From positions 23,418 to 87,417 of IMG/VR virus record IMGVR_UViG_3300035670_000112: a DNA stretch of 64,000 nt. The stretch is one strand, 5' to 3'. How positions within the stretch are numbered: the stretch's first letter is position 1; each line of letters starts with the position of its first letter. The DNA comes from a virus. The notes under the pieces are model-generated. The model was not told the DNA's origin, made no database searches, and worked only from the letters and a program-made list of their open reading frames with translations. The position numbers and the translations under genes were made by a program. Below are positions 12,708 through 28,555 of this stretch, in pieces.

Positions 12708-12938
12708 ATGCCAGACATTACGATGTGTACGGGTGAGAAATGCCCACTTAAGCAGATATGCTACAGACATACTGCAAAGCCAGATCGTTATCAAACATAC
12801 TTTGCAAAAGCTCCTGTACTTGGAGGAACGTGTGAGTATTTTTGGAGGACAGAACCAAAGAAGTGCAAGTATGTAAAAAGGGAAGGTGAAAGCTGTACCC
12901 TGAATGATAACTGTACATACCCTAACTGTAAAGAATGA
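12708..12938 (+). CDS. small Cys-rich protein
   Basis: MPDITMC...CPLKQICYR...CEYF and second Cys cluster. Confidence 0.65.
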   Translation: MPDITMCTGEKCPLKQICYRHTAKPDRYQTYFAKAPVLGGTCEYFWRTEPKKCKYVKREGESCTLNDNCTYPNCKE

Positions 12939-13711
12939 AAAAAAAAATGATAATATCGATTAGCGGAAAAGCAGGTTCTGGAAAGGACACTGTAGGAAAG
13001 ATCATTCAGCATTTGACATCTGAGTGGGCGGAAGATGAATATAAGGATTCCGACATGCTTGCTTTTAGAAGCGATTGGCAGATCAAAAAGTACTCTGACA
13101 AACTCAAGGACATAGTGTGTATTCTTATAGGATGTACCAGAGAGCAATTGGAAGATCAAGAGTTCAAAGAAACTCCATTGGGAGAAGAATGGACAAAATG
13201 GGGAATATTACGTCCCAACGGATCCAGAGTTATTGATATGCAGGCCACTTACGAAGAGGCTTTTGCAAGAAAGGAGAATGTCTGGCAGGATGGTTCCACA
13301 ATAGAGGAAGTTAAGTTGACTCCAAGAATGGTCCTTCAGTATCTGGGAACTGACTTTGCAAGGAATGTGCTTCATCCTGATGCTTGGGTGAATGCCTTGT
13401 ATTCTGAATACAGCCCGTTGTTTTACGAAAAAGATTCAGAAGGAAGAATTGAGATAGTTGAGGAAAAATGGATCATCACAGATTCAAGATTTCCCAATGA
13501 TGTCAAACGTACCCGTGAAATGGGAGGTATTCTTATAAGAGTGAACAGATCTGAATGTGAAGGTCGCAAGAATGAACACATTTCAGAAACAGCTTTGGAT
13601 GATTTTGATGAATGGGATTATGTCATTGAGAACAACGGAACCATTGAAGAATTGATAGAACAGGTAAGAACGATCCTTGAAGAAGAAGGAATCATAAAAG
13701 AGAAAGAATGA
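12935..13711 (+). CDS. deoxynucleoside monophosphate kinase
   Basis: ISGKAGSGKDT P-loop, TPRMVLQYLGTD, ITDSRFPND, HISE motifs of T4 gp1-like kinases. Confidence 0.88.
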   Translation: MKKKMIISISGKAGSGKDTVGKIIQHLTSEWAEDEYKDSDMLAFRSDWQIKKYSDKLKDIVCILIGCTREQLEDQEFKETPLGEEWTKWGILRPNGSRVIDMQATYEEAFARKENVWQDGSTIEEVKLTPRMVLQYLGTDFARNVLHPDAWVNALYSEYSPLFYEKDSEGRIEIVEEKWIITDSRFPNDVKRTREMGGILIRVNRSECEGRKNEHISETALDDFDEWDYVIENNGTIEELIEQVRTILEEEGIIKEKE

Positions 13712-14142
13712 AAATAGATTGGAATGAGATACTTGGACCTATTAAGATAGCTGAGTTGACATATGGAAAGGATGCATCAAGATTCAATGGTCTGAACATC
13801 ATCATCAAGGAGATAAATGACGTATCTGACAGATGGTTGGATTTCATCAAAGAGAACTGTATCCCAAAAAATGCAGTCTCTGACAGAGGGAGTAAGGATA
13901 TACTTGATGCACTTAACTGTGTAATGACCGATATCGAAATGCTCAGGGACAATAAATGGCAACCTGATGAGGAGTCATGCAGATGTACACTTGAGAATCT
14001 TGAACTGATAAGGGATCATATCATGACACATGGGTCATATACTGACAATGAAAAGGTCATGTTTGAACGTAAAAGCAGTCCCTTAAAGGAAGGGGATATG
14101 AGTTATCCAGAATTGACAAAGCCTGAAGATGTCGAAAGTTAG
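13708..14142 (+). CDS. hypothetical protein
   Basis: ATGA-coupled 144-aa ORF. Confidence 0.55.
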   Translation: MKIDWNEILGPIKIAELTYGKDASRFNGLNIIIKEINDVSDRWLDFIKENCIPKNAVSDRGSKDILDALNCVMTDIEMLRDNKWQPDEESCRCTLENLELIRDHIMTHGSYTDNEKVMFERKSSPLKEGDMSYPELTKPEDVES

Positions 14143-14151
14143 GGGTATCTT

Positions 14152-14249
14152 TGGTAACGTTTTGCAGCTAACATAAGTGGCTGCTTGTAAGAACTTCTGA
14201 ATTAAAAACAAATGCTTGTAGCAGCCATTTTTGTTAGGTGCTGTTATAA
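14152..14249 (+). repeat. attC-like imperfect palindrome 1
   Basis: TAAC...CTAACA...AAGTGGCTGCT / AGCAGCCATTT...TGTTAG...GTTA; AAC and GTT termini. Confidence 0.65.
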
Positions 14250-14267
14250 GTTGTAAAAATTACGGTA

Positions 14268-14459
14268 ATGGAAAACGAAACAAAAAAATTAACACAAAAA
14301 GAATTAGAAGCAAGAGCATTAATTGCAGGTGATTTGCTACGAGAAGGTGAAGTAACAAGAGTTGAAACGTTCAGAGTTGAAATTGATGCTGCTCTTGGTG
14401 AAAATACTGGCGATTTGAAGTTTGAAAAGAACACAGACTTTGAAGATGGTACGATGTAG
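14268..14459 (+). CDS. hypothetical protein carried in a gene cassette
   Basis: 63-aa AT-rich ORF between two attC-like sites. Confidence 0.6.
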   Translation: MENETKKLTQKELEARALIAGDLLREGEVTRVETFRVEIDAALGENTGDLKFEKNTDFEDGTM

Positions 14460-14472
14460 TAATTTTTATTGC

Positions 14473-14523
14473 TTATAACGATTTGCTAAACAACGTTTCA
14501 ATGTTGTTTAGGTACTGTTAAAC
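14473..14523 (+). repeat. attC-like imperfect palindrome 2
   Basis: TTATAAC-gatttg-CTAAACAAC...GTTGTTTAG-gtact-GTTAAAC. Confidence 0.65.
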
Positions 14524-14530
14524 CGATAAA

Positions 14531-14767
14531 ATGAACGACATGGAAAAGATTTTAATAGCACTAAAGGTTATTCAAGTTGTTTCAAATATTGATAGAAAAA
14601 AGAACGGACTTGAGTATTTGGGTAGAGGGTTTTCTAAAGCATACAGACTAAATCCATTTAACCCGTTAAGTTACATAATTGTAATTGTGGCGATACCTAT
14701 GACGATAATTCTCTATGGATTTATAGGTTTTTTCAAGCAGGTAACAAATCCATTTGAATGGGACTGA
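14531..14767 (+). CDS. small membrane protein
   Basis: RLNPFNPLSY followed by a hydrophobic helix. Confidence 0.6.
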   Translation: MNDMEKILIALKVIQVVSNIDRKKNGLEYLGRGFSKAYRLNPFNPLSYIIVIVAIPMTIILYGFIGFFKQVTNPFEWD

Positions 14768-14777
14768 ATTAATTAAG

Positions 14778-14867
14778 ATGAACGACATCACTAAGCACCT
14801 GCTGAAAGAATACCTACCGATTGTAATTGCCTTTATCTTGGGAGTGATAATGGGTTTATATCTCTGA
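14778..14867 (+). CDS. 29-aa membrane peptide
   Basis: MNDITKHLLKEYLPIVIAFILGVIMGLYL read by eye; below the ORF-track cutoff. Confidence 0.45.
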   Translation: MNDITKHLLKEYLPIVIAFILGVIMGLYL

Positions 14868-14877
14868 TGCATTATTT

Positions 14878-14912
14878 AAAAGGGGGAAGGGTTATTCCTT
14901 TCCCCCCTTTTT
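14878..14912. terminator. bidirectional terminator at the convergence of the two gene blocks
   Basis: AAAAGGGGGAAGGG-ttat-TCCTTTCCCCCCTTTTT; A-tract before and T-tract after the stem. Confidence 0.8.
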
Positions 14913-18400: not shown

Positions 18401-20879
18401 TCCCATTCGCAAATGCACCTCTCATATGGTCAAGTCTGTTCAATATGCCCTCCGCTTCATCCTCAGCATGTGCAATGAACTTGATGATGCCCTGAGTGAC
18501 CCTTCCCTGCTTGAGTTTGGGATCCTTCTCAGTAAGGTCCTTTTCAATGGCCCTTATGAGTTCCTTCTCCTTGACATAGTATGGACCAGTACCTTTTATC
18601 TTCATTGCCTGAACCCTTGTCTTGAGTCCGTTCAATGCTGTCTCGAGTTCCTTGGTCATACCATCGAGCATCCTTGAGTTCCTGAACATCTTTCTGTCTA
18701 TCTGAAAGAACTGCTGGTCCTCTCCAGCCTGTATACGTTCCTTTATGGCAGCAGGATTCTCCATCACACTCTTTGATATGGCATCCAAACTTTCACGGAT
18801 CCTCCTTTCCTTCAATGCACTTCCCACTGAGAACATTCCGATGAAGGCATTCAATATCCTTTTCAGCAATGTCTTCCATTTAGGGGTCGCATCTATGTTG
18901 AACTCTGAGATCATGGAGTCCGTGAGCATCTTGCCTACGATCTCCATTCTCACTCTTTTCCTGTCATTGCCATAGGCCTCCATATATTGTTCGGAGTACT
19001 TTTTCCAGTAATTGGTCTCCTCGATCAATGATAACGCCTCCACTATACGTGGATCATCCTTCATCGCATATACTATGAAGTGGCTGACCTCCTCTGTAAG
19101 GGTGTCATATCTCTGGGAACCTTCTTTCACCGCTATCACCTTTCTCATCATGTCGGCAACTGCTGATGCGGTCAATTCCTTTCCATACTTCTTCTCATAC
19201 CATTTTCTGTACTCCTCATAGTTGACCAATGATATTCCGAGTTCTGACATTATGGAAAGCATCCTATTGTCAAGTGCAGTGTCCACAGGACGTGATCCCT
19301 CCTCCTGCTGGAACAATGTTGAACGGGGATCTATCTTTATGTAGAATATCTCCCTTCCCTTCTCCCCGAACTTGTTGGCCCTATGTACAGTGACAGCATT
19401 GTACCCCAGTTGACGGTTCACTCTGCCCACCTTGTTGACAGCATCCACATAACCGTTCTTTGTGATCATCAACCCTTCATTGTATCTCTTTATACCGTAT
19501 GATCTCAGAAGCTCATTCTCGATATCTGCCACTGTATTGAGAGAAGGTTCTTGAAAGAATACAGGAGTTTGACCTCTTTCAGTAAATCTTTTAAATCCTT
19601 CTATGTCTTGTTTACTTCCTAATATGTGAATATTATCAGCATCTAAAATAACTAATTGAGCATTATCATTTATAAATAATTCTTTACCTTGAAAAAAAGA
19701 ATCTATTTTTGTTTCTTCAATAAAGTCTTTTATAAAATTAGTATTATAGTTTGAAGCTAAAAATAATCTTTGATAAATACTATTTACTGTATTTTTACCA
19801 TATATATTAGGTTTAATTTCTTTCTTTTCAATTTCTTTAATTATGTCATTATAACTTTCTTCGTCAATATATTTTTTAAACTTATCAACTATACTCAAAG
19901 ATTTTTCTTCAGAAATGGTTTCTGCAAATGTTTGTGAAATTGTATTTTTAACATTTACAATTGCAGATATTACTGTTGGAGAAGTACCTTGTTTAAATTC
20001 CCCTTTTAAATACCTTTCTACTTTTTGTCTGTTATTTAAAAAATAATGACCTATACTAATTCTATCACCTGTAAAAATGTTACTAAAATTAAATTTATCA
20101 AACTTGCCATGTGGAGTACCATGATAAACAATATCCTTTACTTTACTATCAGGAAATATAGTATCTAAATATTGAGAATAAGCTTGTAGTGCTTGTTGTT
20201 TTTGTTGTGGAGTTATTTGAGTAGCTGTCGTTAATTCTTGTTGTGCTAATTTTAATCCTTCTAAAAATGCCTTATCTATTAATTCATTAGTATTATGAGT
20301 AAAGTTTTCGTATTGTAAAAGTTTTTTAGTTGCTTCTGAATTAGGATTTTGTTTAAAACTTTCTACTACAAGTTTTTTCATTAAACCTAAGCTATCAGCA
20401 GCTTTCATTTCTGCAACAGTTCCTTTACCTCTTATTTTGCTACCATGTCCACCTATTTTATTATAAGCATCATAAGTAGCCTTATCAAAACTTCCAGATT
20501 TATTAGATTGATAAGCATGTTCCACGCTACCATATTCTTTGCCTTCCCAATTAAATTTTCTTGGCGCTAAGTTAGACAATATACGAGTTGAAGAATTAGA
20601 CTCAGCTTGCCCCCAATAAACATTTATAGTTCCTTTAGTCTGTACTGTATTATCAAACCCTAAAGCTTCATATACTTGATTAGCTAATTCAGGATTAGAA
20701 TCAAATAGTTCTTGTACTCCTTCCTTTACTCCCATTAACTCACTTGCTGATGGAAATTGATCGGAATTGTTTCTTTGTTGCCATAATGCAACTTCGGCCC
20801 TCAATATTGCAGGGTTTATTCCAGTTGATCTCTGAAGTGCTATGAATTCAGGATGTGAAGTGTTGATACAGATCGACAT
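15462..20879 (-). CDS. large virion cargo/polyvalent protein with NADAR-like, ART-like and zincin-like domains
   Basis: 1805 aa; LSNLA...SVEHAYQS (NADAR-like), KVKDIVYHGT (ART-like), TLTEEVSHF (zincin-like), long helical C-terminal region. Confidence 0.75.
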   Translation of the reverse strand: MSICINTSHPEFIALQRSTGINPAILRAEVALWQQRNNSDQFPSASELMGVKEGVQELFDSNPELANQVYEALGFDNTVQTKGTINVYWGQAESNSSTRILSNLAPRKFNWEGKEYGSVEHAYQSNKSGSFDKATYDAYNKIGGHGSKIRGKGTVAEMKAADSLGLMKKLVVESFKQNPNSEATKKLLQYENFTHNTNELIDKAFLEGLKLAQQELTTATQITPQQKQQALQAYSQYLDTIFPDSKVKDIVYHGTPHGKFDKFNFSNIFTGDRISIGHYFLNNRQKVERYLKGEFKQGTSPTVISAIVNVKNTISQTFAETISEEKSLSIVDKFKKYIDEESYNDIIKEIEKKEIKPNIYGKNTVNSIYQRLFLASNYNTNFIKDFIEETKIDSFFQGKELFINDNAQLVILDADNIHILGSKQDIEGFKRFTERGQTPVFFQEPSLNTVADIENELLRSYGIKRYNEGLMITKNGYVDAVNKVGRVNRQLGYNAVTVHRANKFGEKGREIFYIKIDPRSTLFQQEEGSRPVDTALDNRMLSIMSELGISLVNYEEYRKWYEKKYGKELTASAVADMMRKVIAVKEGSQRYDTLTEEVSHFIVYAMKDDPRIVEALSLIEETNYWKKYSEQYMEAYGNDRKRVRMEIVGKMLTDSMISEFNIDATPKWKTLLKRILNAFIGMFSVGSALKERRIRESLDAISKSVMENPAAIKERIQAGEDQQFFQIDRKMFRNSRMLDGMTKELETALNGLKTRVQAMKIKGTGPYYVKEKELIRAIEKDLTEKDPKLKQGRVTQGIIKFIAHAEDEAEGILNRLDHMRGAFANGMYDDELAQFADVVNDMYKYLHIYRPLVSSLLVETRSDMRTQKRSGAQEADLQHHVALIEALENINSGITQMDNDYSYYSRSIYVYTMKPFLEAYYKDKRMTPEERDAAVERELEELMKITDPSFISADINWYNKELVSLAESPDQLLALTDRLVKDRILAAQRQTYDDMQYLFRLDDELKASGVADTAWMYERDSTGKPTGNLVTRYNMSQYNESKKLFYEELHRRLGLPEDPIERLRIRKRDINIDQEYIESENEWYERNNDLNPDFKNIIADKERRFIEQELKFQKDIDRYYEVRSAHPTTWQTYLIKNDLHIAKGVKRAMNSLNRWKNDRIWEDMNGNVRFRKEFAVPKASIYSNPQFDDIMNSAAKKRYYEGYMDRRSRMNSHMNDTYRNSPLAPQIRKDLVERTLSEGGLKAVKESLVETLTKVEDDTAYGLKHFDVTGKVIKSVPIYYSTRLKDTNDLSLDATSSLVLYANMMNRHRNLTHIQSVIEIGDHVMRSRKVADAGLLSKFASLKGTPESREGGNIYDRYRSYIDMIYYGETKNDRHVPSSKAIDALTKYTAINKLGLNIFAGLSNVTLGNALVREEAFAKQYVTHEDLSKARKAYWQAGREGIAGLMGDSGNLTSSNKLRLFLERFDALQDFESRVSSVNADRGKWGRMFKESSFFLLNHLGEHQMQSRMALALAYNRKLMGPDGNEISLYDALVVENGRLELIDGVKNLDGSEVTDIDMDNFSLKIQAVNQKLHGIYNTNDRSAIQRYALGRAAMLFRKWIPSGINRRFESPYKSYTLNEEIEGMYYTLGARFMTALWNEIKAGQFSLATSKEIYDRMTPMQQANMRRSMIEVGYFLAATVFAGILTGLAGDDDDNWFLNMAAYQAQRFSTDLGIFIPVWNATEITAIVQSPSAALDQLDSILSITKTIDPSAIFSDDDFFKEYKAGRNKGTLKLQVWANRQIPLYETVTDWFYPEERLKYFISL

Positions 20880-23800
20880 TACTGACAGGTTCTTTTCTGG
20901 TTACGCATCATTTCCTTGGTCTCATCTGGAAGAGCATTGAACTCCTCCTGAGTTATGTTGTTCTCTTCCATTATCATCATATCGATGTCTTCATTGGATA
21001 CAGAAGTGAGGGTCACATCTGCACTGACCTTCTTTGTTGTTACAGGAACCTTACTCTCCTTCAGTTCCATGATCTTTTCGAACATGCTCTTCACGTTCTT
21101 CCCTGAACCTATACGTTCCCTCAACTGTTGAAGTTGTTCTGGACTCAATCCCTGTATGCTCTTGAACAGAGGATGTGATATCATCGCTCCTTCCAAAGGT
21201 GCTATACTGTCAATGTCGAATCCTGGAAGTATATCGGATATTGTCAATACCGCCTCTGCCGCATCTACAGGTTTCACTGCTCTATCCTTTATCCTTGTAG
21301 GGGTGGCAGAGGGTTTTCTGGTGGAAACTATCTGAGTATATGTCATGGTATCGGACATTGCATTGTCATAATTGAACTCAAGGAACTCATTGTTTGAACC
21401 CAACAGAGGTACTTCCCTGTATATGGCATCATCCCTTTCGATAGAGTGGAACACCATCAGTGCCGACCTCATCTGTCCTTTCGTCTTCAATACCGTCCTT
21501 ATGAACTCCAACGGTTGCTTCTCAGTGTTATTGACCTTGTTCAGAGGTACCTTCACATATGTCACTCCCTCACTTACCATGAAGATACTGTCCGCATTAC
21601 TGGTATCGAAGTACTTGATGAATGGAAGACTGCGGTACATGTTCCTTATTATCTGAGAGGATATCTCCTTGGATATATTCACGGATCTCTCATCATCGAA
21701 CATGTTCCTATTGAACTGATTCTCCATATACTGTGTGAAGTATATGCCGTTATCGTCCTTCAATTCTGCCCAGTACATGGTAGGCAGAATGTCACTCAGC
21801 TTGCTCGGAGAGGTCACGAACCCTGTTGCAAATATGGAATATGCTGCAATGTCGTTCGCAAGTGATGATACTTTGGGATCCACATCACGCAACATTGAAA
21901 GGAACTCCATCTTGATAGACTGCATCTGTGTCGCATCGATACCTGTACGGTTCATCCTTATCACCTTCATACCTGATACATTCTCTGAGGGGATGACGTT
22001 CAGATACTTCAACAGTGGGATATAGGGGCTTTCAGGGTTCTCATTCATGAAAGTTGTAATGGCAGTCGGGGTATCATTGATCACCCGTTGGAACTCAGAT
22101 GCTCTGAAAGGTCCGAATGATGATGCCAGTGCTGATGATATCGCATAGTGCATAAGGTTGACCGTCTCTGGCTGTATCCTCTGTCCCAATGGAAGGGAGG
22201 CCTTCATAGCATTCTTGACCGTATGATAGATGGATTCACCATATCTGTCGGTGTAAGGTATGCCAGTTGAATTGTATATGTCTGCCAAGGATGCCTCAAG
22301 TCCTCTCTCTCTGAATGCTGCAGACCATCTGATAGGGTTGGACTCCACCATTGAAAGGAGTTCTCTCACCCCGTAAACGATGCCTAACTCCTCAGCATTG
22401 AGTATGGTATCGACATCATCGAGTTTACTGAGCGTATGTGCAACTGTCGGACCAGCGGCATTCTTGATGGAATCGTATCTCATTGCACGTGTCATAGGTG
22501 CAACAACACCTGTCGACACCTCTGCAACCCTTTTGAGCAACCTGTAGACGGCAAGTGAATTGACAAGTTCCAGATCGGTCATTGCCGATACATCCTTTTC
22601 ACCCATCTTCACAAGGTCCATTATGCTTCCTGTGCGTGTAGTAGGATCGAACTTCAATGCCTTTGTGCTCAAGTAGTTCACCATTTCATCATATGCAGCA
22701 CGTCCCCGTCTTCTGATATACTCATCAGTGATATCATCCATACCTGAAAGGTCGAGTCTGTCCACGGAACGGGCTCCTTTGGTAGCTCTGATGACCTGTG
22801 GAGTATTGAAGAACAGTACAGATGCCTCAAGGCCGAAACCCATTCTGACAAGGGTGGCTATCATATCAGCGGTCACCATGGTTATATTGAGGAATGATGC
22901 CACAGGATCCTTTCCGTTATCTACCGCAGCCGCAAGGAACTCCTTCAGCTTCACAAGGTCATCGAATGTGGTACCTTCGTCCTTTCCACTCAGACTTATC
23001 TTCTCCATCCCGTTGAATTTCAAAGGATATTTGAGTGTTACGTTACCTTGCATGACAAGTGCCTGATTGGACACATGGTTTGCAAATATACCGATAAGTC
23101 CGTTACCCGTCATATTCCTTTCAAATACTTCCCTTGAGGTTGAGTTCAACAGAGGGTTCAGAGTGTCGGTACCCATGGAATCCTTCTCGGTCTTTTTCGG
23201 GGAAACCTCCTTTACAAGTGCCTTGAGCGTCTCAAAGCCTCCAGGAGTGGTTATCTCCTTTGCAGTCCTTGCATCTGAGAGTACAGAGAATGCAATGTCC
23301 AATTTCAGATTGTCCCTTGATGCCTTTGTTTCCATCCCTGATGGTACCTTTCTGAGACTGTACTTTCTGAATGTACCCGTATCCTCATCAAAGGCAATTC
23401 CTTCCTTATTGGCAAATTCCCTACGTGAACGGAGTTCATCGAAGTCTGGGATCTCCTTCCTTACGATATCCCTCTTGAGTTTGGAAGACCATTGCATGGT
23501 CGATATGTATGACTGGAATCTCTCCTCAGCACCTTCCACCTCTGAACTGTACTCCTCTATGTTGTAAAGGATACCGTACAGTTTATCGATGTCAAAGTCA
23601 AGACCTGCTATCTTGGTGGCCTCCTCTGGAAGGATGATCTGCCCCCCTACACCCTGTGGAAGGAAACCTATGATCTTGATATGGAACATCGAATACTTGT
23701 GCTCTGTAGGTATACGGTAGAAGACTGCTTTCAGTATATCAGGGTCCACTCCCTCTATCTTCGATATGTCTATGATACCATTCTTGTCGGCATAACGTTC

Positions 23801-26800
23801 CAACGAACTCAATGTGACTGGAAGGATCGCTTCAAAATACTCTATGGATCTACCGTCCTCGCTCCATTTTATCTCAGGCTTCCTATAACCTTTCTCGGAG
23901 CCCTTTTCAAAACCGTATGAGGTGGCATTGTACAATGATGCACCTGCTCCCTTGTTGGTCTTCTGTTTGGTGACCCTGTTCTTGAAGAAGGAATTCATCA
24001 TGGTCTCCACATCATAGGCTATGCTCGGATGCCACAATGGAAGTACCGTAGTGTTCTCAGATCTTACGAGTTCACCATCCTTCTCCACATAGTATCCCTG
24101 ATGGGCGGTTGCCCAATCGAGTGCCGTGAGAAGATCATCAGGCTTCTCATTCTCTATGGCCTGCTGTCTCAATGCCTCGACTATCTTCGTATTGTCTGGA
24201 TTACCGTCAGCATCAGTGAACAATTTCTTCAGTTCATCGTATGATTCCTGTACGTTACGGTACAGTGCCTCATTGTAAAGTCTGAGTATCTCCGCACCCT
24301 CTGTAGGGACCCCGTTCAACATATAGGTATGAAAAGGATCGACATTCTCCACGACAAGTTTACGGTACTGTGTACCTTCCAGTATGTTGGTATCAAGATG
24401 GTGTTCAGGGGTAAGTTGCTGTCTACGGTAATCTGCATTCCTGAATCTATGGACATCCTCTTTTACAGCAGCTTCTATTGAATCCACTGCCTTGAACTTT
24501 CCTACCTTGACTGCAGAGGTGAACATGATTGAGTCTGTGATCCTCTTACTGGGATCGTATGTCCATGTTCCGTCAGCTTTGAACACGTATCCGAACTTTG
24601 ACATCATCGCCTCGAGTTTCGGACTTCCTACTGCCATTGCAGGGGTGATCAGCGTTTCTGAGTTCTTATGCTGTACAGGATTTATTCTTACGTGACCAGT
24701 CACTGGATCTATTGTCCTTGAATGGAGGAACTGGAACGGTTTTATAGGTTGATGTATGTGTCTGCTACCTATGTGTCGCATAGGATCACCGTTCACAAGT
24801 CCTGTATAGAATTCATATTTCTCCTCATTGAGTCCGTTGAATCCCAATTCCAACTGCATTGCACGTATGGGATCTATGATGGTGGCAGCATCGGTCTCAT
24901 TGAGTTCAGAGAATGCCTTTACAATACTTTCCCTGTCAGGATTGTCCCTGTGTATCCTTTCAATGTTCCTTATACCGTCAGACACCACATCTGAAATGTC
25001 AGCAGGGTCGTTCACATACAGTACACTGTACTCAGGGGCTATCCTTACGATATTCCCGTCCCTTGATGTGAACATGTTGGACTGATGGGCATTCATGTAA
25101 TCACCAGGTGACCAGATCTCCTTGATACGTTTGAATACATCGGTATAGTCCACCCTGCTGTCCCTGCTCTTATAGAATGCAGGGTCACCTCCGAAGGTGA
25201 ACAGGGTCTGAAGGTTCATAGCCAATGAATTGTGGAGGTATGACGATATGTTACGGTCGAATGATTCAGGGTCCATGAACCTTGAATCTATCAGACCAGT
25301 GTTGTCGAAGATGGTACCGTTCTCCTCTGCAAGGATCCTCTCAGTGTACAGGGACTTCAGTTCACTCTCTATGATCTTCGGTATCTCAGCCCCGACCGCA
25401 TCTATCACCTGTTGGTCATCCTTCAGGTCCTTGATATTCTCATTGAGCGATCTGAAAACCTGAAAGTAGAGTCCATTGAGAAGCATGTTGACTGGAATGT
25501 CATTCAACTGCTCAGGTATGCGTGCCTTCTCACTGTATGATTTTTTGCTGTCCTTCTGATCCTTCAACCATGTGTTATACTCCTGCTTGACGGGTTGTAT
25601 CCTCGATCTCAACCATTTTATCCTGTTCCACTCCTGAAGTGCAGAATCGATTATCGCCTGTCTGGACTCATCGATGTCCATCTTTTTGATCTTGATGAGT
25701 GCAGCAGATGTGGAATCCGATAGTATGGGCATAAGGAATATGCCGTTCGATTTAGGCGAAGTGGCATCATCGGCAATATTGAAATATGCGTTGATCCTGA
25801 ATGCCTCGAGTTCCTGTCCTGTGAGTTCTGAGTATTCCGTTCCCTTCCTCCTCTTCTCAGATTTGAGAGAATCCATCACACCCAGCTCCATCGACATTGC
25901 AACATCTCTGTCCATCATCATTCTGAAGAACGGAGAGGTTGAATAGAACGGATCCTCCATGTATGAATCTATGGTGGCCATTCTTGTGGCATTGTCAACT
26001 GTGGAGATGTTGCCTCTGAGATTCTGCATGAACCTTGATTGCAGGAGTGAGTATATCATCTCACCTGCACCGCTTCTGAAAGAGTGCTGATATGCCTGAG
26101 GAAAGACCTCCTGATAGACCTTGAGAATGGAATTGAGTGCCTTATCATTGTCAATGGTGCTTACGAACGGATTGTTACCCGTCTGTATCCTCTTCATATA
26201 GTATATGATGTTGGGAGCGAATGATTCAACGAATCTTCTCTTACCCCCAGGAATGGCATCCTGATCGTCAGGTATGGAGAACATCATGTTTATCTCCCTT
26301 TTGGTCAGAGGTAGATTCAGGAGTTTCATAAGATTGTATACCTTCTGAGCGTCCTCCCTTGATATGGGACCTTCCTTCTCCAATGGATCCCTGTTGATGT
26401 TCCTCTTGTAATCATCCCTCAATCTCTCAAATTCAGATATGCGTTCACTCAGATCCCCTGATACCTTCTCAGTGGATGGATCGTAGAACTTTGAATCATA
26501 GAAGGACTGCAACCATTGTTTCCTCATGTCACGTGTCATGTCACGATGGTTCGCATAGAATATCTTTGACCTTCCCTTCTCATTGCTCACTATGAAGAAT
26601 GGAGTGAAGGTACGTTGGGCAACATTGACCCAGAACTCTGTTATCACATGAGGGTCCTGCGTCATTGCGGTCGTTATGACCTTGTAACCTGGATTGAGCT
26701 TCACAAGCTCATCCAGTCTTGACAGCATGGTATCGACATTGGGAGAACCAGATATCTTCGATGCTATCGTATTGTAAACATTTGACGGATTCTCGAAAAC

Positions 26801-28555
26801 GGTCATCCCTCCGAACTTGACACCTTTCAACGGTATCATGGAGAACATCGCCTTCGCCTTCTGAGAGAATTTCTCCCTGCCTGAAAGGAACTTGTCCTTT
26901 ACAGCCCATGATTCCACCTGTTCCTCATCTTCCTCCATTATGCCCACCTCATCGATGGCATCAGAGGTCTTTGAGGCATCAGACATGTCATAGGTCATGT
27001 TTATACCGTAGTACTTGAGGTATCTTGCCGCCTTTACGGACAGTTTCCTCATTGTAAGGGTACCGTCCGCATTGACAGTCCCTATGGAGTTGAGTGTGCG
27101 TTCAAGTACCTTTCTGTCACTCTCATTCCTCTTGAGTGCCATGGAGTTCTGAATGACCCTGTGAACATTGGCATACAGTCCATTCAATGACAATGCAGGG
27201 TTTCTGGTCCTCTTCCCTCTCTTTATGATCTCCTTTATCAGATCCGCATCTGAAAGGCTCTCCATACCGTAAAGACTTCTGTACTTGGGAAGTACGGTAT
27301 TTATGAGGATACCGTTCATCAGACGTTTCGCATACTCCTCCTCCCTTATGTTGAGATACGTGGTACTGTCCACAGACCTGAATCTTGTGACATCCCTTTT
27401 GAACTTCACTCCTCCGAATCTCTTCACGATGCCCTTATTGTACAGACCTCTGCTCACTCTGTACATGTAATCGTTCATGGACGCAGCACCTTTGATACCA
27501 GTGCGTTCAGCAAGGATGCTTATGATATGCCACAGTCTTCTGAAAAGATCGAGGACATTCTCTGGAAGACCCCTCTCTTCCTTTGCCTGTGACAGTTGAT
27601 ATTCCATGAAACGGTCTGCCCAGTATTCCTCAATACCTATGGCACCTTTTGCAAATCTCTCACCTGCATCTATTATGGAAGCACGTTCCACATCATTCAA
27701 GAGTGTATGGAATACAACGTGAAACGCCTCGTGATAGAGTGTACCGGTCTTTGCCTGCTGTGATATGAATACCGCTGAGTTCCTGAAAAGTCCCCATAGT
27801 TCTGGACTTGCCTTACCTGCAATGGATCTCAGATCAGCAAGTACTGTCAATGGTACACCTGGATAATTCTCCTTGAACCACTGTGTCTCCTTCTGTTCAT
27901 CCCACAGTTCATAGCTTCCGTCAGTATCAATCACCTCACGTGAACGTTCATCGATGTCCTCATCGAACTCCGATATCGTATCATTGAAATCAGGTATGTC
28001 ATCCGATGGAGTGGTCACATCGATGGTCGGACCAGTTTGTTCAAACGGTATCTCAGGTTCACCCTTTCTCTTCAATATGGCTCTCCCTACAGGACCTTCT
28101 GAGGATACCTCCTTTCCGTTGGATGCACCTTCAGGTGTTATGTTTATGATCCTTCCGTCCTCTGTAAGTGCATACACCTCACCATTGAATTCGAATTTCT
28201 CATAGCTCACATACTTTGATTTCAGATGTGCCTTGTTGATGAGTCTGATGTCCTTTACAGGGTCGAGTACTCTGCCGTTGTTGGTGAAGGACACCTCACC
28301 GTTCTCCATATTGACAGTGACATTGAACTTCTGTGTACCATCCTTGTCAATGGTCAGTCTCTTCACATTCTTTGAAGGTGCTGCCAGAGGAACGTTCACT
28401 GCAACAGGCTTGATCTGCCTTGCAGGCATGTCCTTTATAAGGGACCTCTTTATCCTTCCTGAGGATGCAAGTGTTTCCAATTCACCATCAAGAAGGAGTT
28501 TTGCAAACTCCTCAAAACTGTATCTTCTACCTCCGTAACTTATTACACAGCTCAT
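20879..28555 (-). CDS. virion RNA polymerase (crAss-like) with N-terminal zincin domain
   Basis: 2558 aa; YRIPTE and GLDFDIDKL metal-binding motif as in phi14:2 gp66-type RNAPs; LYHEAFH HExxH. Confidence 0.88.
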   Translation of the reverse strand: MSCVISYGGRRYSFEEFAKLLLDGELETLASSGRIKRSLIKDMPARQIKPVAVNVPLAAPSKNVKRLTIDKDGTQKFNVTVNMENGEVSFTNNGRVLDPVKDIRLINKAHLKSKYVSYEKFEFNGEVYALTEDGRIINITPEGASNGKEVSSEGPVGRAILKRKGEPEIPFEQTGPTIDVTTPSDDIPDFNDTISEFDEDIDERSREVIDTDGSYELWDEQKETQWFKENYPGVPLTVLADLRSIAGKASPELWGLFRNSAVFISQQAKTGTLYHEAFHVVFHTLLNDVERASIIDAGERFAKGAIGIEEYWADRFMEYQLSQAKEERGLPENVLDLFRRLWHIISILAERTGIKGAASMNDYMYRVSRGLYNKGIVKRFGGVKFKRDVTRFRSVDSTTYLNIREEEYAKRLMNGILINTVLPKYRSLYGMESLSDADLIKEIIKRGKRTRNPALSLNGLYANVHRVIQNSMALKRNESDRKVLERTLNSIGTVNADGTLTMRKLSVKAARYLKYYGINMTYDMSDASKTSDAIDEVGIMEEDEEQVESWAVKDKFLSGREKFSQKAKAMFSMIPLKGVKFGGMTVFENPSNVYNTIASKISGSPNVDTMLSRLDELVKLNPGYKVITTAMTQDPHVITEFWVNVAQRTFTPFFIVSNEKGRSKIFYANHRDMTRDMRKQWLQSFYDSKFYDPSTEKVSGDLSERISEFERLRDDYKRNINRDPLEKEGPISREDAQKVYNLMKLLNLPLTKREINMMFSIPDDQDAIPGGKRRFVESFAPNIIYYMKRIQTGNNPFVSTIDNDKALNSILKVYQEVFPQAYQHSFRSGAGEMIYSLLQSRFMQNLRGNISTVDNATRMATIDSYMEDPFYSTSPFFRMMMDRDVAMSMELGVMDSLKSEKRRKGTEYSELTGQELEAFRINAYFNIADDATSPKSNGIFLMPILSDSTSAALIKIKKMDIDESRQAIIDSALQEWNRIKWLRSRIQPVKQEYNTWLKDQKDSKKSYSEKARIPEQLNDIPVNMLLNGLYFQVFRSLNENIKDLKDDQQVIDAVGAEIPKIIESELKSLYTERILAEENGTIFDNTGLIDSRFMDPESFDRNISSYLHNSLAMNLQTLFTFGGDPAFYKSRDSRVDYTDVFKRIKEIWSPGDYMNAHQSNMFTSRDGNIVRIAPEYSVLYVNDPADISDVVSDGIRNIERIHRDNPDRESIVKAFSELNETDAATIIDPIRAMQLELGFNGLNEEKYEFYTGLVNGDPMRHIGSRHIHQPIKPFQFLHSRTIDPVTGHVRINPVQHKNSETLITPAMAVGSPKLEAMMSKFGYVFKADGTWTYDPSKRITDSIMFTSAVKVGKFKAVDSIEAAVKEDVHRFRNADYRRQQLTPEHHLDTNILEGTQYRKLVVENVDPFHTYMLNGVPTEGAEILRLYNEALYRNVQESYDELKKLFTDADGNPDNTKIVEALRQQAIENEKPDDLLTALDWATAHQGYYVEKDGELVRSENTTVLPLWHPSIAYDVETMMNSFFKNRVTKQKTNKGAGASLYNATSYGFEKGSEKGYRKPEIKWSEDGRSIEYFEAILPVTLSSLERYADKNGIIDISKIEGVDPDILKAVFYRIPTEHKYSMFHIKIIGFLPQGVGGQIILPEEATKIAGLDFDIDKLYGILYNIEEYSSEVEGAEERFQSYISTMQWSSKLKRDIVRKEIPDFDELRSRREFANKEGIAFDEDTGTFRKYSLRKVPSGMETKASRDNLKLDIAFSVLSDARTAKEITTPGGFETLKALVKEVSPKKTEKDSMGTDTLNPLLNSTSREVFERNMTGNGLIGIFANHVSNQALVMQGNVTLKYPLKFNGMEKISLSGKDEGTTFDDLVKLKEFLAAAVDNGKDPVASFLNITMVTADMIATLVRMGFGLEASVLFFNTPQVIRATKGARSVDRLDLSGMDDITDEYIRRRGRAAYDEMVNYLSTKALKFDPTTRTGSIMDLVKMGEKDVSAMTDLELVNSLAVYRLLKRVAEVSTGVVAPMTRAMRYDSIKNAAGPTVAHTLSKLDDVDTILNAEELGIVYGVRELLSMVESNPIRWSAAFRERGLEASLADIYNSTGIPYTDRYGESIYHTVKNAMKASLPLGQRIQPETVNLMHYAISSALASSFGPFRASEFQRVINDTPTAITTFMNENPESPYIPLLKYLNVIPSENVSGMKVIRMNRTGIDATQMQSIKMEFLSMLRDVDPKVSSLANDIAAYSIFATGFVTSPSKLSDILPTMYWAELKDDNGIYFTQYMENQFNRNMFDDERSVNISKEISSQIIRNMYRSLPFIKYFDTSNADSIFMVSEGVTYVKVPLNKVNNTEKQPLEFIRTVLKTKGQMRSALMVFHSIERDDAIYREVPLLGSNNEFLEFNYDNAMSDTMTYTQIVSTRKPSATPTRIKDRAVKPVDAAEAVLTISDILPGFDIDSIAPLEGAMISHPLFKSIQGLSPEQLQQLRERIGSGKNVKSMFEKIMELKESKVPVTTKKVSADVTLTSVSNEDIDMMIMEENNITQEEFNALPDETKEMMRNQKRTCQ

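Follow-up and report, generated by a model that had tools for sequence, protein, structure and literature searches.

The 64,000-nt stretch analyzed here (the window, positions 23,418 to 87,417 of the virus record IMGVR_UViG_3300035670_000112 in IMG/VR) contains, between positions 14142 and 14878, a run of small open reading frames (ORFs) and folded sites that probably represents a recombinase-less array of one or two integron-like cassettes in a crAss-like phage, resembling a cluster of attC sites lacking integron integrases (CALIN). A 2558-aa ORF of the window (20879 to 28555, − strand) matches the virion RNA polymerase of the crAss-like phage phi14:2 (6vr4, E = 5e-14, residues 1101 to 1919). 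An initial annotation had read the locus as a cassette of integron style, flanked by attC-like sites, inside a lytic-type phage, and both the pairing of a cassette's own ends and the cassette-wise turnover described below agree with this. The idea is partly supported, being right in kind, wrong in the register of the crossover and probably wrong in the enzyme.

Two imperfect hairpins, S1 and S2, and small ORFs, all of them encoded on the + strand, occupy the interval from the stop codon of a 144-aa ORF (14142) to a convergent terminator-like hairpin (14878 to 14910). The features on which the argument depends are as follows, in window coordinates, which are used throughout unless genome positions are indicated:

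14155 to 14246, + strand: site S1, a 92-nt imperfect hairpin, the type I allele of a conserved site family
14206 to 14221, + strand: conserved loop motif AAACAAATGCTTGTAG, containing an ATG (14212 to 14214) behind an A-rich leader
14212 to 14256, + strand: upstream ORF (uORF) of 14 codons, read from the sequence, which starts in the S1 loop and crosses the right stem and GTTA
14243 to 14263, + strand: start arm GTTA-TAAGTT-GT-AAAAATTAC, complementary to the end arm and obeying the family rule GTTA-N6-GT
14268 to 14459, + strand: cassette ORF w1, 63 aa, no Pfam domain
14459 to 14479, + strand: end arm GTAATTTTT-AT-TGCTTA-TAAC, which starts at the G of the stop codon and whose TAAC doubles as the first four bases of S2
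14476 to 14520, + strand: site S2, a 45-nt short hairpin
14158 to 14478, + strand: predicted mobile unit, C-G-hairpin S1-GTTA-arm-ORF-arm'-TAA, suggested by the block edges in two other loci (L055 and L078), the breakpoints and the fold
14531 to 14767, + strand: ORF w2, 78 aa, with a hydrophobic C-terminal half and no Pfam domain

S1 follows the plan TAAC (14155 to 14158), GTTTT, left stem (14164 to 14185), a 36-nt loop, right stem (14220 to 14241), a single T and GTTA (14243 to 14246), its two 22-nt arms being 86% complementary, and S2, which begins 230 nt after S1, the plan TAAC, GATTTG, stem (14486 to 14497), TC, stem (14500 to 14511), GTACT and GTTA, with arms of 12 nt each. The TAAC start, GTTA end and asymmetric spacer described in the initial annotation are present in both, and of that description of the two palindromes only the lengths have to be corrected, to 92 and 45 nt from about 98 and 51. 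Both sites start with TAACG and finish with CTGTTA, and their shared 13-mer terminus, TTAGGTRCTGTTA, has no other mismatch-free copy in the window. The spacers are unequal, with 5 to 6 nt behind TAAC and 1 to 2 nt (5 in S2) ahead of GTTA; this asymmetry, the fixed G.T wobbles and a recurrent G-G mismatch are possible strand markers, although their equivalence to extrahelical bases is not established. At 92 nt, S1 falls within the attC range of about 57 to 141 nt, as do the sites of a second, larger array in the same genome (77 to 134 nt), all of which start with (T/C)AAC and finish with GTTA, while the 45 nt of S2 are below the usual attC length.

The start arm and the end arm, which bracket the 63-aa ORF, match at 18 of 21 positions, with a G.T wobble at the fixed position 11. 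Across any one hairpin, the match between the flanks is limited to TAAC/GTTA. Both facts had been pointed out in the initial annotation and are borne out. Compared with RYYYAAC/GTTRRRY, the outer boxes read GCCTAAC/GTTAGGC in unit c5 and CTTATAAC/GTTATAAG in w1, many units having GTTAGCR or GTTATRN, and TAAC/GTTA is the sole invariant part among units.

The window is part of an 87,417-bp record with a CheckV completeness estimate of 86%. A bracket scan of this whole record, in which GTTA plus 10 nt was compared with 10 nt plus TAAC at spacings of 80 to 1500 nt, returned four pairs matching at at least 13 of 14 positions, all of them within genome 8.6 to 10.8 kb, outside the window. GTTA ranked top of all 256 tetramer cores (4 pairs at this threshold, with a core mean of 0.195 and a value of 0.065 for 200 shuffles). 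The larger array, at genome 7932 to 10816 and likewise outside the window, consists of eight units in tandem, split by 77- to 134-nt hairpins that start with (T/C)AACG and end with TGTTA. Over nine units, the complementarity of a unit's own ends beyond the cores is 7.0 of 10 positions, against 3.1 of 10 across the same hairpin or with other units (permutation p = 2e-5), and the single mismatch falls repeatedly at one place, where a GTTA-N6-G start faces a T-N6'-TAAC end, giving a G.T wobble on the coding strand only. The paired architecture of the locus is not a product of chance. One 12/14 bracket (12787/14158) was set aside as probably chance, as its start lies within an ORF and the fixed wobble is missing, and a permissive scan for folded sites (YAAC...GTTR) gave too much noise to be usable. 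Ahead of the larger array, 48 nt upstream of its first unit and 15.5 kb ahead of the window, lies a tRNA-like element (G000:C1:7742-7884; L005 2743-2885) that matches the Rfam tRNA model at 32 bits (gathering threshold 29) over 143 nt, which implies an insert of ~72 nt; ARAGORN made no call there.

The same sites are found in other phages. A site-family pattern taken from the S1 loop and right end (AAACAAATGNTTGTAG-N10-40-TGTTA) was scanned over IMG/VR and matched 85 stretches, about 65 of them true sites that fall into two ~90-nt hairpin alleles: type I, almost identical to S1, of which ~20 contigs hold near-identical copies, and type II, which has a wholly different 20-bp stem. The two alleles agree in the layout of the 36-nt loop, in having G.T wobbles at positions 11 and 14 of the stem and in their borders, AT-N6'-TAACG on one side and CTGTTA-N6-GT on the other, and the loop motif AAACAAATGCTTGTAG is common to type I, type II and site E hairpins despite their differing stems. 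In 49 of the 65 the downstream unit (170 to 560 nt) is closed by its own complementary arm at at least 9.5 of 12 positions (GTTA-N6-GT / AT-N6'-TAAC), and this co-variation extends to at least 15 different N6 sequences, with G.T at position 11. Across loci, the GTTA core gave 367 brackets compared to 24 to 109 for control tetramers, in arrays of up to 15 units.

The w1 protein itself has homologs in 84 clusters at 67 to 98% identity, with a fixed C-terminus and variable N-termini. One homolog (L004) has brackets of another sequence that pair perfectly over 14 nt, the arms around another (L016) differ from those in the window by compensating changes, further arm pairs surround those in L021/L024 and L023, and decayed arm remnants those in L017, L018, L020 and L022; homologs at 59 to 72% identity sit in ordinary contexts. 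A search of genome contigs with the cassette protein returned two phage-like contigs of metagenome-assembled genomes with decayed arms and no integron context, and among isolate phages neither the 63-aa protein nor S1, the type II hairpin or the recombinase described below was found. Single-protein scans of IMG/VR with the DNA polymerase or the 144-aa upstream gene found no relatives, and a scan with a 258-aa gene found L002 and L003 only, neither of them syntenic downstream.

Cassettes differ in order between near-identical phages. The recombinase regions of L055 and L078 are 98.8% identical, and three blocks of 98 to 100% identity are arranged A-B-...-C in one and C-B-A-... in the other, with the TAAC at a hairpin's 5' foot as the first edge of every shuffled block and the ORF-closing TAAC as its last. 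For the window locus, we compared contigs assembled in four metagenome runs. Run X5 contains a 6.1-kb relative with ~95% flank identity and different content, ~295 nt between 14161 and 14903 versus 741 in the window. From 14155 onward, S1 is also present in other genomes (runs X1 and X5), as are S2 and the start of w2 from 14475/6 onward, behind different upstream sequence (X1, X3 and X4), and in one X5 contig the w1 end arm is common up to 14479 and is followed by a different hairpin. The similarity breakpoints at 14155, 14475/6 and 14479 accompany the reordering in L055/L078 as signs of cassette-wise turnover among relatives. Two further X5 joints (14258>14464 and 14264>14458) are represented by 22-nt sides only, with the letters between them unknown, and were left uninterpreted. 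In the same ~95% relative, the 258-aa gene (12935 to 13711, with a P-loop-like N-terminus) is replaced over 12938 to 13707 by 559 other letters, a gene-sized swap with sharp edges at the gene borders.

As the block edges and breakpoints fall on TAAC, S1 would move with w1 and S2 with the next ORF. The TAAC-to-TAAC blocks, the breakpoints and the ORFs that start in the upstream loop all indicate that a hairpin belongs to the gene behind it. The polarity of gene and site is therefore the reverse of the classical one, with the site upstream of its gene and no coding-strand crossover at G|TT with a downstream site. The initial annotation had placed the crossover at G|TT, with a circle of 14244 to 14517; blocks and breakpoints instead point to TAA|C, the presumed cleavage bond, and to a predicted circle for w1 of about 14158 to 14478. 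It had also suggested that the ORF at 14531 was a cassette that has lost its site, but the site of this ORF is S2, upstream of it, and the piece that is missing is a recognizable closing arm. S2 and w2 are probably a second cassette unit.

T4-type phages have the other cassette system known from lytic phages, the PeSLs, for which modular shuffling and mini-circles have been described (Arbiol et al. 2010, PMC2839356; Comeau et al. 2014, PMC4122927), and the hairpins could likewise be repeated regulatory islands, with homologous recombination between the copies moving genes. A hairpin sequence that is highly conserved (types I and II, ~65 contigs) lies between small accessory ORFs in early or hyperplastic regions, just as conserved stem-loops lie between small accessory ORFs in the variable regions of lytic T4-type phages. 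A PeSL, however, differs in all its defining features: it is a sigma-70 promoter plus a terminator, recombines by homology between direct repeats and lacks AAC/GTT cores, inverted repeats at its own ends and a recombinase dedicated to it, and no promoter-like (sigma-70) or T-tract terminator-like element was called inside S1 or S2. Adjacent hairpins in one array have unrelated stems and hence offer little homology, the block edges are at TAAC, outside the conserved hairpin body, and recombination between direct repeats would give neither the own-end complementarity nor the N6 co-variation. With the recombinase linkage also left unexplained, we consider this origin very improbable.

The commonest neighbor gene in the 80 loci taken from the pattern scan, about 65 of which have a true type I or II hairpin, encodes a tyrosine recombinase of 267 to 277 aa, present as three sequence types and two truncated copies, with PF00589 matches at 1e-33 to 1e-39 and a SAM-like N-terminal domain. 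In the five loci examined, which include all three types, it is co-directional with the cassettes and starts 55 to 65 nt past the last N6'-TAAC, and this spacer is kept between phages whose last cassettes differ. The larger array in the present genome terminates in ...GGCTTATAAC; the ATCTGATATGTACATAAAG that comes next is similar to how the conserved spacer ahead of the recombinase begins in L055 and L078 (TATTATATGTAAAC), and behind it lies a 74-aa ORF, not a recombinase.

The best match of the recombinase is XerA (NF040815 at 173 to 207 bits, cut-off 220; PDB 4a8e at 3.7e-40). Its best scores were obtained against the XerA/'integron integrase' and XerC/D models, all below their cut-offs. The integron integrase model TIGR02249 gave 155 to 168 bits in two stretches (cut-off 265), without the IntI-specific additional domain, and the match to IntI4/VchIntIA (2a3v) was also in two stretches only. 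By these comparisons, the linked enzyme is a small Xer-like recombinase and not a classical IntI. Truncated recombinase genes next to type II hairpins (147 aa in L107 and 93 aa in L109) suggest that the enzyme decays while arrays persist. In Bacteroidota chromosomes, a mostly longer homolog, 40 to 51% identical, was present in 123 of 301 sampled genomes, and at five of 20 chromosomal loci a bracketed GTTA/TAAC unit of 700 to 1100 nt lies 100 to 130 nt past the stop codon, in a polarity opposite to that of the phage arrays. Most of the chromosomal homologs (L129 to L148) carry a ~100-aa N-terminal extension with a recurrent ...W(S)...WHLPDT... motif, and many of these copies lie at contig ends. 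The initial annotation had invoked a host or trans-acting tyrosine recombinase, which agrees with the lack of one in this phage but not with the relatives, which encode their own Xer-like enzyme directly behind the array. A single-strand transposon of the IS200/IS605 type was considered and rejected: no PF01797 match indicates a Y1 HUH transposase, a unit has a single hairpin instead of two different subterminal ones, and the enzyme linked to the arrays belongs to the tyrosine recombinases.

These matches also bear on whether S1 and S2 are true attC sites of classical bacterial integrons, taken from a host array and serviced by a host IntI. TAAC/GTTA ends are the commonest cores of R''/R' boxes, and some units, such as c5, have GCCTAAC/GTTAGGC. 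Qi et al. (2023, Front Microbiol) described 17 CALINs in phages and found that IntI1 recombined five of six sites, including Pseudoalteromonas phage PH101 sites with the same TAACG...TGTTA ends, and HattCI, as the only program to do so, called P12002L_attC1 in Polaribacter phage P12002L (PMC9892861). Against a classical origin stand the Xer-like enzyme of the relatives (267 to 277 aa, with its two-stretch score of 155 to 168 versus 265 bits), the failure of IntI1 to recombine P12002L_attC1 (PMC9892861), a gene orientation relative to the site that is opposite to the classical one, and genome searches with the cassette protein that show no bacterial integron context, and we regard it as very improbable.

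The P12002L CALIN is the closest published case. In gene sense, the intergenic sites of this phage (NC_028924) read AT-N6'-TAAC-G-hairpin-TGTTA-N6-GT and belong to the same family as S1 and S2, and the published primer sequences (PMC9892861) identify attC1 as the family hairpin and the recombined attC2 as the array-terminal GCCTAA|C junction, on the other strand. Like the locus studied here, it has single-gene arrays and folded AAC...GTT sites in a lytic phage without an integrase, but it was read as classical attC sites spread by bacterial integrons, and that description (PMC9892861) makes no mention of arms at a cassette's own ends, of the TAA|C register, of reversed polarity, of conserved alleles of the hairpin or of a linked Xer-like recombinase.

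The coding strand folds better than the other strand in all 14 sites (DNA parameters; Wilcoxon p = 0.001), with 32 G.T pairs versus 6. When the end arm was joined in silico to the upstream hairpin, as it would be in a circle, the junction folded on average 6.0 kcal/mol below the genomic context, and a unit's own arms gave values 6.25 kcal/mol lower than the arms of other units. The circular junction of w1 forms one continuous stem at −29.3 kcal/mol compared to −19.7 kcal/mol in the linear context.

In the mechanism that we propose, a cassette would be a folded site followed by a small ORF (C-G-hairpin-GTTA-N6-GT...ORF...AT-N6'-TAA). The small tyrosine recombinase of the relatives, a member of the Xer/IntI clade, would cut and join the coding strand at TAA|C, where the folded site has its 5' foot, excise the cassette as a circle and allow its reinsertion at the TAAC adjoining the recombinase's own gene. 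In the circle the two arms of one cassette would pair and lengthen the hairpin by 14 to 21 bp, which would explain why cassette ends match each other and not their neighbors. In the phage studied here, cassettes would have arrived, or would still move, by means of a recombinase supplied in trans or since lost.

Since the site loop carries an A-rich leader and a start codon, it is also a probable translation start for the gene behind it. The 14-codon uORF of the S1 loop, which to judge from its sequence may be translated, stops 11 nt ahead of the w1 ATG. In other units the loop ATG is in frame into the ORF, reading through GTTA (c1, with a lipoprotein signal peptide, c5 and c6), and the S2 loop holds a 6-codon uORF that ends in GT-TAA.

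It has to be asked, then, whether the hairpins act in the mRNA only, by presenting an open-loop start codon, by insulating or stabilizing cistrons or by UAAC|G processing, with gene turnover left to ordinary recombination. This would fit the better folding of the sense strand at 14 of 14 sites and its excess of G.T (G.U) pairs, as it would the loop motif, whose A-rich leader and ATG run into the ORF or end near its start, the co-variation of N6 between fixed flanking bases, which is the classic signature of a protein-recognized RNA helix, and a genome without a recombinase. It gives no account of identical cassettes reordered with their edges exactly at TAAC, of a recombinase at a fixed distance past the last TAAC in three lineages or of the TAAC breakpoints at the window locus, and Rfam contains no family matching S1/S2-type sites. 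We judge an exclusively RNA-level function to be unlikely; an RNA role may add to the DNA role rather than replace it.

Several observations weigh against mobile cassettes served by the linked recombinase. The coding-strand G.T bias and the loop start codon suit an RNA structure equally well. One arm pair (TAAGCT... / ...TGCTTA) accompanies ORFs of differing length, and arms are therefore not unique labels. For w2 no closing arm was found. In one X1 contig, the match to the window covers S1 plus 17 nt of start arm and is followed by a different ORF, which neither crossover register predicts, and in the assembled contigs (as opposed to reads) no circle, excision joint or empty site was seen directly. 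A complete 94-kb relative (G002) is without the system and shows no bracket enrichment. Only its position suggests a role for the recombinase, which may instead be an integrase used in lysogeny. The only family hairpin examined in the laboratory, P12002L_attC1, is the one of six sites that IntI1 did not recombine (PMC9892861). Finally, the 87,417-bp record has no match to PF00589, PF00239 or PF01797 at E ≤ 1.

The lack of an integrase in the window, noted in the initial annotation, therefore extends to the whole record, and tblastn of the record with the related phage recombinases gave E > 0.3 throughout and no recombinase remnant. Both arrays are for this reason orphan and CALIN-like. As Cury et al. 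are said to have defined it in 2016, a CALIN is a group of two or more attC sites close together without an integron integrase nearby; S1 and S2 on the one hand, and the eight or nine sites at genome 7.9 to 10.6 kb on the other, have no integrase and correspond to that definition only if the sites count as attC.

Two further features complete the locus:

14754 to 14867, + strand: 37-aa ORF whose opening codons (ATGAACGACAT) are those of w2; positions 14778 to 14849 recur in another genome
14878 to 14910, no strand assigned: terminator-like element, a G+C-rich hairpin with T-runs on both sides, where the + and − gene blocks converge

The hairpin is the downstream limit of the variable locus, and the X5 relative rejoins the window at 14903. 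The starts of w2 (14527 to 14541) and of the 37-aa ORF (14774 to 14788) have identical first 11 bases (ATGAACGACAT). The segments 14475 to 14551 and 14778 to 14849 co-occur in a far more abundant genome of the same samples, 118 nt apart versus 226 in the window; a distance of 17.8 kb separates the two S2-like sites of that genome. Among the cassette proteins a Pfam domain is present in c4 alone, a dATP/dGTP diphosphohydrolase in which it begins at residue 22. The Zn-ribbon part of c5 (L005 5299-5407) shows 81% DNA identity to the C-terminal part of gp059 of Cellulophaga phage phi10:1, a 127-aa membrane protein of an unrelated siphovirus; the two have this domain in common and differ in their N-termini. 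In phi10:1 and phi14:2 the homologs of c5 and c4 lie in ordinary packed contexts without sites. A 257-aa ORF at G000:C1:18919-19692, which starts with MVGIYKITSPNGRVYIGQS, encodes a putative GIY-YIG homing endonuclease inside the replication module.

The phage arrays share much with classical integrons (general mechanism: PMC3458562, PMC8618304). In both, a tyrosine recombinase of the Xer/IntI clade adjoins an array of imperfect palindromes with AAC/GTT cores, cassette ends are complementary to each other as expected from entry as a circle, cassettes are reordered, one strand is favored for folding, and the cut falls, or in the phages would fall, at an AA|C that lies 5' in the folded strand and adjoins the recombinase gene. 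The phage layout is what a classical integron shows when read along its recombining (bottom) strand, (C-site-GTTRRRY-gene-RYYYAA)n / C-attI-intI, with the difference that the phage genes are sense on this strand. The phage recombinase also lacks the hallmark insert of IntI and is co-directional with the array and downstream of it, the site lies upstream of the gene and carries a start codon, the paired outer box measures 14 to 21 bp with a fixed G.T and not 7 bp, and the host of the system is a phage.

Conserved site sequences have a parallel in sedentary chromosomal integrons, which have sequence-conserved attC families such as the Vibrio cholerae repeats. Xer enzymes can act on a hairpin formed by one DNA strand, as XerCD does on attP of CTX-phi. 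The linked recombinase is most similar to archaeal XerA (PDB 4a8e and 5hxy) and to XerC/D, but Xer systems carry out integration of whole phages at dif or resolution of chromosome dimers and have no cassette arrays. In the literature, we found no description of an Xer-linked cassette system in phages. Whether many Bacteroidota-type phages have a distinct integron-like system of their own, related to elements of Bacteroidota chromosomes and defined by an insert-less Xer-like recombinase, a folded coding strand, TAA|C exchange and an upstream site that is also the translation start, seems to us evenly balanced.

Integrons are regarded as a bacterial device run by IntI, and clusters of attC sites in phages have been read as stray pieces of bacterial integrons. 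Our data speak for a version resident in phages, equipped with an Xer-like enzyme and conserved site alleles of its own, with reversed polarity and clear reshuffling, in dozens of uncultured phages that include crAss-like ones. If this is true, phages run their own exchange of accessory-gene cassettes independently of classical integrons. It would explain the traffic of small accessory genes between unrelated phages, among them early genes, possible counter-defence genes, enzymes of the nucleotide pool and methyltransferases, and it would add a second natural pair of recombinase and site that acts on folded single strands, a useful tool. Annotators can take the sites as marks of cassette boundaries and of start codons that are likely to be the true ones, and the system would offer a direct way to study how 'ORFan' genes turn over in the genomes of phages.

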